A stretch of DNA of 64,000 bases, from the NCBI GenBank assembly GCA_951406725.2, contig OX597839.1:12772001-12836000 (forward strand), written 5' to 3'. Under the pieces are notes generated by a model. It had not been told where the DNA came from. It did no database searches and saw only the letters and a list, made by a program, of their open reading frames with translations. The stretch comes from Octopus vulgaris (lineage: Eukaryota). This document shows positions 30,201 through 62,948 of the stretch, piece after piece; the stretch's first letter is position 1, and the number at the start of each line of letters is the position of its first letter. Both the position numbers and the translations under genes were made by a program.

Positions 30201-33200
30201 TATTCTAGCAAATATTAATATTGGAATGAGCAATGTATTCATTGGTAACGCTAATGTCACAAATGTATACCCTTCAGAAGATATGAGGATAAATTGCATG
30301 AATCATAGGGAGAAATTCAGCAAATATTTCAGTAAGTAAACGCAGTTTCTCTTTGTTGATTTCATATTAATCTTTTATTTGTTTCAGTTATTAGACTGTT
30401 GCAATGCCGGGGCACTGCCTTGAGGGATTTTAGTCGAACTATTCGACCCCCAGCACTCATTTCCTTTTTAAACCTCTTTACTCTTTTACTTGTTTCAGTC
30501 ATTTGACTGTGGCCATGCTGGAGCACCACCTTTAGTCGAGCAAATTGACCCCAGGACTTATTCTTTGTAGGCCTAGTACTTATTCTATCAGTCTCTTTTG
30601 CCGAACCGCTAAGTTACAGGGACGCAAACACACCACCATCGGTTGTCAAGTGATGTTGGGGAGACAAACACAAACACATAAATACACACACATACATATA
30701 TATATATATATATATATATATACACATATACATAAATACGACGGGCTTCTTTTCAGTTTCCGTCTACAAATCCACTCACAAGGCTTTGGTCAGCCTAAGG
30801 CTATAGCAGAAGACACTTGCCCAAGATGCCACGCAGTGGGAATGAACCCAGAACCATCTGGTTGGTAAAGCAAGCTACTTACCACACAGCCACTCCTGCA
30901 CTTAGTAGGAGTGGCTGTGTGGTAGTTATTCTCTCAGCGCTCTTTTGTTGAACTTCTAAGTTACAGGGACATAAACACACCAACACTGGTTGTCAGTCAG
31001 TGTGGGTGGCGGGGGGAGGAGACAAGCACAGTCACAAACACACATGCGCACGCATATATACACAATGAGCTTCTTTCAGTTTCTGTCTACCTGTCTACCA
31101 AACCTCACAAAGCTTTGGTGGGCTTGAGGCTAAAGCAGACGACACTTGCTCAAAGTGCCATGCTATGGGACTGAACTTAGAATCATTTGGTTTGGAAACA
31201 AACTTCTTACTACACAGTCATACCTGTAGATTTTGTATAATATTTTTGTAAGGCTTTCAATGTCATGAAATTGCATTTGACACCCTAGCCCTTAACTGAT
31301 GAGGAGATGGTGTCCCATGTCCTTTTTCTGTTCATTTGTTTATTACGCTACATGTTTGACTCCTGAAAATATTATTCATGTAACACAATGCACTCCTTAT
31401 TTTTTTGTACCTATACACACACACACACATGTATATAAGTGAATAAAATGACAGTGAAGTGTATGCAGGTTGAAACCTATTTGTACTTATACATAGGCGC
31501 AGGAGTGGCTGTGTGGTAAGTAGCTTGCTAACCAACCACATGGTTCCGGGTTCAGTCCCACTGCGTGGCATCTTGGGAAAGTGTCTTCTGCTATAGCCCC
31601 GGGCCGACCAATGCCTTGTGAGTTGATTTGGTAGACGGAAACTGAAAGAAGCCTGTCGTACATATGTATATATATGTGTGTGTATATGTCTGTGTTTGTC
31701 CCCCTAGCATTGCTTGACAATCGATGCTGATGTGTTTACGTCCCCATCACTTAGCGGTTCGGCAAAAGAGACCGATAGAATAAGTACTGGGCTTACAATG
31801 AATAAGTCCTGGGGTCGATTTGCTCGACTAAAGGTGGTGCTCCAGCATGACTGCAGTCAAATGACTGAAACAAGTAAAAGAGTAAAGAGTATACGATATG
31901 TCGGTCAAGCATACATGCAAGCTTGCTTTCTAGATGCAAAATGCTATCCCCCATCCCTGTGTCTCCCTGGCCCACACCTTCCACACCCTCAGATTTGCCA
32001 CACACATTTAATGGGGCACATTGATAGGCTGAAAGGTAAGTTTGGGGAGATTGTTGAGATGCTTGAACAGAGGAATGTAGAGTGTGTTGCATCTGAGAAG
32101 TAAGGTGCAGAGAAGGTTCTGCTAGGTTTCTCATAGGCAAAGACCATAGGTATAAAATCTTCTGGGTAGGAAACAGTGATAGGGTTGGGGGTTGTCCTTG
32201 GGAGCTTCTGTACACTGATCACCTTGTTCTTATAGTTGAATCACTACCTGACCTAGTGAAGCAATATCAGGTCTAGAAACAAGATCTGGAATCTAAGGGC
32301 CTTAGGGTTAATTTTGAAAAAACCCCAACTTATTTTTTAAAATGGATTGATAAGGTAATCGAGGTAGTCAGAGTGTGTGATAGAATACTTAGGCTTAGAC
32401 TGGTGTTGCAATGTGGAGCAGCAACCATTAGCTTGGGCTATTCCCCTCAGCTGAGACTACCTGATGAACAGAAAGACCGATTTTATGACACCCTTTTGCA
32501 GACCACCTCATTGATGAATGTCAGGGACCTTCTCTTTGTAGCTGGCAACTTCAATGGGCATGTTGGACAACATCTTGGTAGCTTCCATGCCATGCATGGT
32601 GGCAACAGATTTGGTTCCTGTAATGAGGAGGGAGCCAGGCTGCTGGAGTTCTGTGATTCAAATGACCTTATGATCTACAATACTAATTTCAGGAGACCTC
32701 CCAGTCACCTGTTCACCTACCAATCTAGAGGGTACACTAGTCAGGTTGACTACATTCTTGCCAGAAAATGGGGAAGATGGCTACTTATAAATGCCAAAAC
32801 TTTCCCAGGTGAAGAATGCACCCCACTCAACATAAGTTAGTTGTTAAATACTTCAGGATCAGAGATAAATGGCTGCCCAGATGACAACCTGTATGGAAAA
32901 GAAAGGTTTAGAAGCTTAAGGATCATCTGAATGGACAGAGATTTAGAGATGTGTTACTTGAAGGATTTGCTGGAAAAGAGGAAGATATAGCAACATATAA
33001 TGTGGAAAACAACTGGAGGTTCCTACAAGACAACCTGTTAAAGGCTGCTGTTTAAATCTGCTAAGTCCCTTCTTGATCTGTGGTGACATGGTGATGGAAC
33101 AGTATAGTTGACAGGGCCATTAGAGAAGAAAAGAAACAAGCCTGGAAGTGTGATGGTATCAGGAAACTATATCAGATAGTCAGAAGGAAAGTTATGAGAT

Positions 33201-36200
33201 AGGTGTACTTAGCCAGGGAAAAAGCAGAAAAGAAGTTTGCCAATGTTCTGCTACATGAGGACCAGAGACTTGAAGTGTTTCAGATTGCAAGACAGTGTGT
33301 GAGAGAAAATTGTGATGTCATAGGAGAGAAATGTGTCTGCATGGATGATAGTTTACTTGCATTTAATGATTCTGCTAAGAAAATGGCTTGGAAATGCCAT
33401 TATGAAAGGCTGTTAAATGTGGAGAACTAATGGGAGGAGAGTCTGCCAGATGTTGGCCCTACTGAGGGACCAGCTATCTGAATCGATAGTAACTTGATAG
33501 ATAAAGCAATTAAAGACATGAAGAGAGGAAAAGTCCCTGGCCCATCAGGAATCACTGCTGAGATGCTTAAAATATCTCGAGTAGGATATAGCTTAGTCAC
33601 TAGTATATTTAATCAGATTGTCCATGAGGGAGTCATACCCAATGATTGGTGTAGCAGCATTATAGTCAACTGCTACAAAGACAAAAGTGATAATTACAGA
33701 GACATCAAATTGCTGGACCATGTGATGAAAGTCATAGAAAGAGTCATAGCTCAATTAATTAGGAACAGAGATAGTGTAGATGAGATGCGGTTCAGATTTG
33801 TGCCAGGCAGGAGCATGACTGATGCCATAATCCTGGTTAGACAACTGCAGGAGAAATATTTGGCTTAAAATAAACCTCTGTACCTGGCTTTTGTCAACAT
33901 GAAGAAAGCCTTTGACAGGGTGCCCTGCTCCCTTATCTGGTGGTCAATGTGAAAGCTAATAGTGAATGAGTGTTTAGTTAGAGTGGAACAAGCCATGTAC
34001 AGGAATGCTGCCAGTAAGGTGAAGGTTGGCAATGAATTCAGTGTATAGGTGAGAGTCCACCAAGGCTCAGTTCCCAGCCCCCTCCTGTTTATCTTAGTCC
34101 TCCAGGCCTTAACAGAGGAATTCAAGATTGGTTGTCTTTGGGAGCTTCTCTATGCTGATGACCTTGTTCTTATAGCTGAATCACTGACTGACCTAGTGAA
34201 GCAATTTCGGATCTAGAAACAAGATCTAGAATCTAAGAGCCTTAGGGTTAATTTAGCAAAAACCAAAAGTCCTAGTAAGTAGGGAAACAGATAAATCACA
34301 AATCCCTTCTAGGAGATGGTCCTGCTTGGTATGTAAGAAGAGCGTAGGTAGAAACTCCTCATGCAAACTTTGAACACATAAGAGGTGCAGCAGTGTCAAA
34401 GGAAGGTTAACTAAGAATATAGTCTTTGTGTGTGGCAAATGTGCAGGTACAATAAGCACTAAAAATATGCAGACAATAGACTCCCTCAAATGTTTGGGTG
34501 GATCATTAGAAGTAGTAGTATATGCATAACAGAGTGTAAATGATTTAAGGGGAAAACTGGGTATAAGAGGCATCATATGTTGTGTGCAAGAGAGAAGACT
34601 GTGCTGATTTGGTCATGTGATGCCTATGGATTAGGATAGCTGCATAAAGAAGTGCTGAGCTCTAAATGTGGAGGAACATATGGAAGGAGTAGACCCAGGG
34701 AGACATGGAATGATGTGGTGAGAAAAAATGGTGAAGATGATATATATTTAATACACACAATGTATGTTTTTATGTGCTACTATTAGTTTCACATGCTGAG
34801 GATTTGCCAGTCAGTGTTTTATAACATGTCTGGTGTCCTAGCACAATCATCAGACAGTGCCAACATGGCATAAGTGTCTGATGACTGTGCTGGGACACTG
34901 GATGTGTTATAAAACACTGATTGGCATGTTCTCAGTACATGAAACTAATAGTAGCACACAGAAACATATATTATGTTTTTAGTAAATATTATTTATCTCT
35001 CCCTGGATGGAGTACTTTTTTTGTTGATCTTACCATTCTGAAACAGTACAGTATATGTGGTCAGTTGAGGATGGGGGACAAGAGAGAGATGTATGGAATT
35101 GGGAGCAGATGATAAGTGAGCATGGCATCAGCAACACTTACATTATTTGGAAAATGCAATGGAAAGAGTACAGTGAAATTGTCATGGAGAGTGGAATGTC
35201 CAGCATTTAAGATAGAGTGTGAAATTTGATGGCGATTTGACTGTTATTTCTAAACAAAAAAGTAAATATGAAACATTTCAATATAAATTCTTAAGAATCA
35301 TGGAAATATTTTTGCAGAGTCTAATACAATACTGACTGAGAAACACCTCAACAAAATATCCATATACTTAGGGAATAAATGGAAGCGTGTTGGTAAGTAT
35401 AAAATATACATTGCTTTAGATGTTTTGCTTCTATCATATCTTTATTTTTTACTTGCTTCAGCCATTATGTTGTTGCCATGCTGGAGCAGCACATCGAAAA
35501 ATTTTTAGTCGGATGAATCCAATACTTTCTTTTCTTTTTTTTTTTCTTTAAGCCCGGTGCTTATTCTATCAGTCACTTTTGCTGAACTGCTAAGTTACAG
35601 AGATGCAAACACACCAACCCTGGATGACAAGCAGTGGTGGAAACATGCACACACACGTGTGACAGGCTTCTTTCAGTTTCCATCTACCAAATGCACTCAC
35701 AAGGTTTTGGTTGGGCTGGGGCTATAGTAGAAGACACTTGGCCAAGGTCCCATGCAGTGGGAATGAACCTGGAATCATGCAGTTGGGAAACAAATCTTCT
35801 TGCCACCTAGCCACCCCTACACCTATCTAACTACAAAATAATGTTTAGTGAGTGATACGATACTTAATGTGATGAAGAAAAGATTTCAGTTAAAGTTGTT
35901 CTTGCTAGGAGGAGAAGAAAAGAATCGTCACCCTTTTGCTACCATACTTTTGTTGGAACACTTCTTTTGTTGTAATTAATGTTGAAAATAATGAATTTAT
36001 GAATATAACTGTTTTGTTATTAAGCTTCTTCTTTATGACTTTAACCCTCCAATGTGGAGTATGTGTGTGACCTCCTTCGGTCACGAATGACCACGGAATT
36101 GCACCTAGAAAGTTACCCTCCAAGGCACAAGTCTGGGCAAGGTTGTTTATGGAAGACCAGCAGTCGCCCATGCATATCACCCTTCCCTCTCCACATCACC

Positions 36201-62873: not shown

Positions 62874-62948
62874 AGTCTAATACAAAACTGACTGAGAATC
62901 AACTCAACAAAATATCCAAATACTTAGGGAATAAATGGAAGCGTGTTG
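62874..62948 (+). CDS. Death-domain exon, copy 2 (LTENQLNKISKYLGNKWKRVG)
   Basis: Same splice sites as 35318-35392, with 4 substitutions. Confidence 0.8.

Follow-up and report, generated by a model that had tools for sequence, protein, structure and literature searches.

How can neighbouring copies of a gene stay almost identical over kilobases of intron and yet differ, with no silent change among the differences, in the short exons that are predicted to mediate interactions with other proteins? The question is raised by a 64,000-nt stretch of the Octopus vulgaris genome (assembly GCA_951406725.2, contig OX597839.1, positions 12,772,001-12,836,000, + strand; hereafter the window, from whose first base positions are counted), which was compared together with 80 kb of upstream and 120 kb of downstream sequence. 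The window harbors gene A and gene B, which belong to an array of six tandem genes, all on the + strand and all encoding kinase-less proteins with a RHIM-like motif and a death domain, by their sequence likely Imd/RIPK1-like immune adaptors. Most of the data are explained, with a probability of roughly two in three, by repeated positive selection after a recent swap of a sequence block between copies, accompanied by continuing gene conversion.

Genes A and B share an 11-kb direct duplication, as an A-type block within gene B (52579..63581, +) is 99.0% identical to 25006-36026 in gene A and is flanked on both sides by sequence of a second paralog type (type 2). In the formal alignment, which spans 26100-35900, the introns carry 28 substitutions in 9,108 bases, whereas the RHIM-like exon (30209..30331 in A, 57780..57902 in B, both +) carries 7 in 123 bases (M>I, A>D, N>K, P>S, I>R, N>K, M>V) and death-domain exon 1 (35318..35392 in A, 62874..62948 in B, both +; predicted helix 1 to helix 2) carries 4 in 75 bases (I>K, K>N, H>Q, I>K), none of them silent. 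The density in the two exons thus exceeds that in the introns ~18-fold (11/198 vs 28/9,108; Fisher p=3e-10), the introns contain at most 3 substitutions in any 123-bp window, and the intron differences closest to the RHIM-like exon are 395 bp away on its upstream side and 210 bp away on its downstream side. These exon changes had been listed in a preliminary description of the locus, made from the sequence alone, and the alignment agrees with the list, finds the introns to be far less diverged than the exons and counts 7 substitutions in the intron before the RHIM-like exon (27233-30208), where about half a dozen had been estimated. The description went too far in stating that the copies differ almost only in interaction exons, since introns account for 28 of the 40 substitutions in the shared block, linker exon X (26754..27232 in A, with AG/GT ends and an open frame; 54324..54801 in B, one base less than in A and C; both +) has a non-synonymous substitution in 478 bases plus a 1-bp deletion in B that shifts the frame, and the first and last exons of B are of the other type. 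Its count of 11 non-synonymous changes out of 11 is right but weak on its own: a random change in these exons is non-synonymous in 75-81% of cases, so that neutrality alone gives such a count with P=0.04-0.09. Transversions make up 8 of the 11 exon changes and 9 of the 28 intron changes (p=0.03).

The RHIM-like exon of gene A encodes the motifs INIGMSN and VFIGNAN and ends where the death domain starts; gene B has INIGISN and VFIGNDK, and the loss of the Asn of the GxxN motif, which had been pointed out early on, is therefore borne out as a replacement by Lys of the Asn that follows the RHIM core. This Asn is conserved in RHIMs (PMC4262963), and its replacement could alter or abolish fibril formation by B. 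When the changes are polarised with O. sinensis as outgroup, an N>K and the M>V of the list prove to be changes in A, and P>S is common to A and C, so that only four of the seven are B's own.

The excess recurs in comparisons that played no part in the discovery. Gene C, a third copy with the A-type block, is grouped with B by the intron sites (23 private to A, 5 to B and 7 to C, 3 of the latter in a microsatellite), and after removal of 9 misaligned edge columns B and C differ at 8 of 123 bases in the RHIM-like exon, all non-synonymously, vs 12 of 9,092 in the introns (~0.1%; p=9e-11), their death-domain exons 1 being the same. Between the type-2 genes D and E, death-domain exon 1 differs at 7 of 75 bases vs 49 of 8,195 in the introns (p=6e-7), and the last exon at 5 of 206. 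A parsimony count over the variable codons of closely related copies, taken in length-matched groups and leaving out the deep or indel-rich pairs (A-D last exon, D-F linker, D-F RHIM), yields 42 non-synonymous changes to 1 synonymous (P 1e-5 to 8e-4), distributed over the RHIM-like exon (10 among A, B and C, and 1 between D and E), death-domain exon 1 (13, plus the silent one), the last exon (11), the first exon (4) and the linker (3); the 10 variable sites of the RHIM-like exon include no silent one. With the 11 discovery changes set aside, the ratio is still 31:1 (P 4e-4 to 7e-3), and it is this replication that upholds the diversifying selection proposed in the preliminary description. Between species, the RHIM-like exon is the least conserved, with 60% identity to O. 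bimaculoides (other exons 84% (linker), 83% and 79%) and 90% to O. sinensis (other exons 97%, 100% and 100%), gene A differing from the latter at 4 of 40 RHIM-exon positions. In the death domain, the codons that vary map to helix 1, the helix 3-4 loop and helix 4 as predicted by a low-confidence AlphaFold model, which was built on a three-sequence alignment and used for rough helix limits only; these elements form the type Ia and IIIb surfaces of death domains (PMC8403095). Genes D, E and F also differ among themselves at codons 9, 12, 14 and 15 of death-domain exon 1, and the conserved hydrophobic positions of the domain are invariant among copies.

The preliminary description had overlooked that B is chimeric, that its frame is shifted in this assembly and that both genes lie within a larger array. 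The linker exons start at window positions 26754 (A), 54324 (B), 88746 (D), 110055 (C), 127523 (E) and 146788 (F), with D, C, E and F following B within the next 100 kb, and the spliced genes encode 269-301 amino acids (aa). D, E and F constitute the second paralog type (last-exon dS from A 0.68); in both O. sinensis and O. bimaculoides a type-2 gene is annotated beside an A-type gene under adjacent identifiers, and by this arrangement the two-gene unit is old and was expanded to six in O. vulgaris. Along gene B, the sequence is of type 2 at 44-47 kb, of A type at 53-63.5 kb and again of type 2 from 63.5 kb, and gene C has the same composition up to an assembly gap; judged by this composition, B and C are chimeras in which an A-type linker, RHIM-like exon and death-domain exon 1 sit in a type-2 gene. 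The first exon is of type 2 in both, and that of B (MDGYKEIH; 45348..45373, +) differs from the four downstream genes at 4 of 26 bases, all non-synonymous; its last exon (G000:C26:12836218-12836423, +; 64218-64423, just past the window end) is also of type 2, with 52% protein identity to that of A. A protocadherin-like organisation, with a common first exon and alternative 3' cassettes, was considered and is out, as every downstream gene has its own first exon.

Conversion from paralogs, the other process proposed at the outset, applies to one of the two exons. Across the six genes, death-domain exon 1 and ~630 bp of the next intron share 93-97% identity, whereas alignment between the two types fails a few dozen bases upstream of the exon, and the segment is, on this pattern, a conversion tract across the array; two of the four B changes relative to A also occur in downstream paralogs, K4 in D, E and F, and K15 in E as well as in O. 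bimaculoides. Searched against the genome, this exon was found in the six array genes and, as a 72% match, once more at a distance of 3.5 Mb. For the RHIM-like exon the proposal is not supported, as the three type-2 copies are ~70% or less identical to the three of A/B/C type, and no donor for the changes was found among the genomic matches to the A-type exon (3/3); no further type-2 RHIM exon was found in the next 30 kb past the fetched region, a genome-wide search for such exons not having been completed. Incompatible site patterns (A and C vs B and O. sinensis at 30271; A and B vs C and O. sinensis at 27014) indicate either exchange or recurrent change. The type-2 death-domain exon 1 of O. 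bimaculoides is nearer to that of its own A gene than to the O. vulgaris type-2 genes (P0051, P0009), which suggests that the exon was converted independently in each lineage.

The deletion in the linker exon of B lies at ~54628 (CCC in C, CC in B) and leads to a stop before the RHIM-like exon; it is possibly an assembly error, as CCC to CC is a typical long-read error. It falls into a small hot spot (27059-27064 in A), where A, C and other animals differ from one another in codons 102-104. In gene E the acceptor of the RHIM exon is changed from AG to TG, gene F has lost the VxxG core, and gene C keeps an open frame up to the gap and both GxxN motifs.

Further features frame these genes. Gene A has five coding exons, of which the first (MDGSSELHR; G000:C26:12769619, +) lies 2.4 kb upstream of the window and the last, death-domain exon 2 with the stop codon, at 39003..39205 (+; Pfam Death E=8e-7). 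Its low-complexity linker exon X matches annotated Octopus proteins and is covered exactly by contigs from runs X9, X11 and X19, presumably of RNA type, which begin again at the acceptor of the last exon (39003). The 29-kb first intron contains three reading frames (9632-11300, 13255-16372 and 20581-23713) that, from their translation, we take to be LINE-type reverse transcriptases or endonucleases, and decayed copies are present in later introns. Immediately ahead of the A-type block of B, at 48513-52593, nested direct and inverted repeats of ~530 bp, 98-99% identical, are found between long AT tracts and may be a scar left when the block was inserted. The first intron of gene D carries ~25 tandem copies of a 414-bp unit (L004-L006, G000:C26:12846633-12856972), of which other type-2 genes have fewer copies in the same place.

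Other animals' DNA bears on whether the exon variants are real. Seven of 24 public sequencing runs were compared, all as contigs. In X1, which may be the assembled animal and of which ~80% was examined, the A-type RHIM exon is present at 48.8x and the C-type at 42.4x, the flank that they share at 140x and A-only sequence at ~50-62x; no B-type contig was found in the examined ~80%. In X4, from another study, a contig at 7.7x bears the B-type letters at 30228, 30251, 30255 and 30271 (6 differences), and contigs of the other two types are present as well, C at 6x and A, here with a new I>V change, at 20x. Because another animal's DNA carries B- and C-type exons, the copies are not an assembly artefact, and the early argument against a simple assembly duplicate stands. 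X3 and X5 each have a single RHIM-exon version, which matches the O. sinensis protein, and the X3 contig has 0 differences in 198 flanking intron bases; as X5 bears the same species label as X1 and X4, this points to a broad label or to B and C not being fixed. Among the exon variants listed from other animals' contigs, all 11 change the protein. The long contig comparison was swamped by repeats and neither supports nor refutes the frameshift of B.

As to the identity of the encoded proteins, homologs annotated in O. sinensis, O. vulgaris and O. bimaculoides are ~300 aa long, are called uncharacterised or RIPK1-like and have the death domain only, those of O. vulgaris (P0007, P0053) being probably not independent of the present sequence; a Pfam scan of three annotated full-length Octopus proteins shows the kinase domain to be absent. 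Among solved structures in the Protein Data Bank (PDB), the death domain of gene A matches RIPK1 best (E 9e-12), followed by TRADD (2e-4), and Pfam Death is above its cut-off. The definition of a RIPK1 homolog in PMC12119088 requires a kinase domain, so that the octopus proteins fall outside it. NVFIGNAN of gene A aligns column for column with the RIPK1 RHIM (GIQIGDSN), which Pfam recognises, and with NVQFGGHN of P0055, a 299-aa relative whose death domain is preceded by a canonical-looking VQFG core and which has three D-A-x-P motifs; this position in the alignment supports the RHIM label given in the preliminary description, on which Pfam itself is silent. The VxxG core that defines the cRHIM (PMC10268257) is VFIG in A and B, VIIG in C and VAVG in D and E, a four-letter motif being weak alone. 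In the broad sense a RHIM is present, namely a hydrophobic core up to Gly with Asn three residues on, before the death domain (the Asn lost in B), but the RIPK1 tetrad V/I-Q-V/I-G is absent, the octopus core being VFIG.

The linker of gene A contains two predicted caspase sites that are followed by IAP-binding-like motifs (DETD-AVPL and SKTD-AVPQ), a pair of D-AVP motifs that was equalled in 1 of 20,000 shuffles. At motif level, DETD-AVPL occurs in A, B, C and O. sinensis, and DEID-AVPL in O. bimaculoides; it is absent at the corresponding place in the type-2 genes D and E. The variable peptide of the B first exon sits ahead of the predicted caspase site. Insect Imd is cut after LEKD or LETD, which exposes an IAP-binding motif (PMC6626034). 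The nearest Atlas clusters consist of short arthropod death-domain proteins at 0.88-0.89, which is below 0.9 and a lead only. The last death-domain exon of gene A has 66 matches in the genome, 61 of them outside the array and mostly on C29 and C31 (L029-L053), with the same intron position in those inspected and with annotated relatives that are ankyrin-RING-death-domain proteins named MIB2-like. Judged from these matches the RIPK1-type death domain has undergone a large expansion in octopus, with variation around helix 3 and the loop between helices 3 and 4, and its ankyrin-RING members are a possible partner set for the array adaptors.

Several observations weigh against selection on interaction surfaces as the explanation. 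Copies may fail to make protein (the B frameshift, the E acceptor, the F core, the gap in C), the deep pairs have no dN above dS (A-D last exon 0.30/0.68, D-F linker 0.19/0.19, and D-F RHIM exon 0.32/0.62 in an indel-rich alignment), and the death domain of gene A equals that of O. sinensis at 90 of 90 residues. Changes also occur outside the interaction exons (4 of 26 bases in exon 1, and the linker hot spot), the counts are small and come from counting tests rather than a codon model, and the structure model is poor (mean pLDDT 37). Pfam RHIM (PF12721) matches neither the exon nor the proteins, though it matches RIPK1 proteins; a genome-wide search with it had no match anywhere, controls included, and is hence uninformative.

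Four other explanations were weighed. As in opsins, old divergent exon versions could have been kept by selection or imported by short conversion events from paralogs or alleles not yet seen, with introns flattened by conversion, an explanation that can do without a wave of newly arisen adaptive changes. This would suit the assembly gap in the array, the X4 RHIM-exon contigs, which with the new I>V outnumber the assembly copies, the homogenised death-domain exon 1 and the 8 changes accumulated since the split of B and C, which at ~0.1% intron divergence are many for new mutation. Old versions should, however, bring silent and flanking differences with them, of which the RHIM sites (0/10 silent) and the nearest introns (none within 395 and 210 bp) are free, a donor is missing among the three genomic matches, and X3 and X5 have one version each, so that we consider this origin unlikely. 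Compensation within the fold would account for the four death-domain exon 1 changes of B alone and is compatible with positive selection after the block swap: the death domain itself is chimeric in B and C, where an A-type half would have to pack on a type-2 half, and K4 and K15 are the residues of type-2 genes (K15 also of O. bimaculoides). The four changes would then be uninformative about the choice of binding partner. Yet D, E and F, which have no such mismatch, still vary at codons 9, 12, 14 and 15, and the conserved hydrophobic positions do not vary, hence such compensation has a small chance of being the cause.

Decay is less probable again. B, and perhaps C and E, could be decaying or decoy copies whose changes break the RHIM, either neutrally once the frame was shifted or as a favoured inactivation of a harmful chimera, and the frameshift, lost acceptor and lost core of B, E and F can be read in this way, as can NAN to NDK, which adds charges at and beside the Asn conserved in RHIMs (PMC4262963), and the X4 B-type contig at less than half the A-type depth (7.7 vs 20). 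Neutral decay, though, cannot beat the intron rate 18-fold, the intact gene A carries derived changes in its RHIM exon too, C is open to the gap with both GxxN motifs, and the B deletion has the form of a typical long-read error. False duplicates or erroneous exon variants are largely refuted and highly improbable, even if the gap, the long AT repeats at the block edge, the homopolymer frameshift and the missing B-type contig in ~80% of X1 would be in keeping with them: X1 has A- and C-type contigs with a shared flank far deeper than A-only sequence, X4 has B- and C-type contigs in an independent study, and errors would not spare silent sites.

Under repeated selection after a block swap, the RHIM and death-domain exons of the array would have been driven apart by positive selection, and recombination between copies would have swapped and homogenised the rest of the genes. 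In Imd, the RHIM takes the seeding signal and the death domain passes it on (PMC13506858, PMC10268257); by analogy, amyloid assembly of the octopus adaptor would be seeded by an upstream RHIM protein, a FADD-caspase-8-like partner would be recruited through the death domain, and AVPL would become accessible to an IAP ligase once the protein is cut after DETD. The block swap would couple an A-type RHIM, as input, to a mostly type-2 death domain, as output, and selection would then have retuned the RHIM and the helix-1/helix-4 face, either for escape from pathogen inhibitors or for avoidance of cross-seeding with sister copies, with some of the death-domain exon 1 changes of B stemming from conversion from, or ancestry in common with, type-2 genes. 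The changed amyloid and death-domain specificity of the preliminary description, with an arms race or allorecognition behind it, would likewise be hypotheses. A further-reaching and tentative idea, which we hold to be doubtful, is that the octopus builds a repertoire of rewired Imd-like adaptors by block swaps, in which each young copy has been selected for its own amyloid code, allowing parallel signalling without cross-seeding or escape from RHIM-mimicking inhibitors; this would be a mollusc Imd with all three hallmarks of the arthropod protein (the caspase site with its IAP-binding motif, the RHIM and the death domain) and possibly ~60 ankyrin-RING partners.

The near-isogenic natural RHIM variants, which are 5-8 of 40 residues apart, make the positions that set amyloid cross-seeding specificity directly testable, a specificity so far studied on conserved vertebrate cores, and octopus proteins that combine a RHIM and a death domain with an Imd-type caspase/IAP motif and lack a kinase bear on the origin of Imd. 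Should B prove to be a pseudogene and the motif be unable to form amyloid, the locus would still be a clear, if ordinary, example of tandem immune genes that evolve fast. The pattern as such is known, and the octopus array is apparently undescribed: no description was found in a literature scope mostly without subscription journals and supplements, and the accessible parts of PMC9334734 and PMC4199593 give no account of this gene.

Among known systems, arthropod Imd (Drosophila, Tenebrio, shrimp) is likewise kinase-less, ~300 aa long and equipped with a VxxG core, a C-terminal death domain and an N-terminal caspase site, in which D is followed by A and an IAP-binding-like motif (LETDA in dipterans, PMC6626034; DETD-AVPL in octopus), and positive selection acts on hemipteran Imd death domains (PMC12137711). 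In contrast to Imd, the octopus has six tandem genes, chimeras among them, as well as two D-AVP motifs, two IxIGxxN-type motifs and a RHIM directly before the death domain, as in RIPK1. Imd is cleaved by DREDD/caspase-8, forms amyloid with a receptor and activates Relish/NF-kB, which for the octopus proteins would be predictions. According to a 2023 paper, the Imd adaptor had not been found in molluscs (PMC9835746). Vertebrate and spiralian RIPK1 resembles the octopus proteins in its death domain, which is the best match, in the RHIM-death-domain spacing and aligned core, and in the ortholog name RIPK1-like given by the National Center for Biotechnology Information (NCBI), and differs in having a kinase, absent from the three Octopus proteins scanned, and the conserved Gln (V/I-Q-V/I-G vs VFIG, VIIG or VAVG). 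RIPK3 of primates, bats and carnivores also has positively selected sites in and around its RHIM (PMC12119088), but its core tetrad is conserved across orthologs, whereas in octopus young paralogs differ in the core and in the Asn that follows it. Like the octopus copies, the red and green opsins combine high exon divergence with flat introns in tandem duplicates under conversion (PMC3924837). Unlike in the opsins, the octopus exon peak is free of silent change and two other runs (X3, X5) have a single version, hence the peak looks recent rather than like an old difference that was shielded from conversion.

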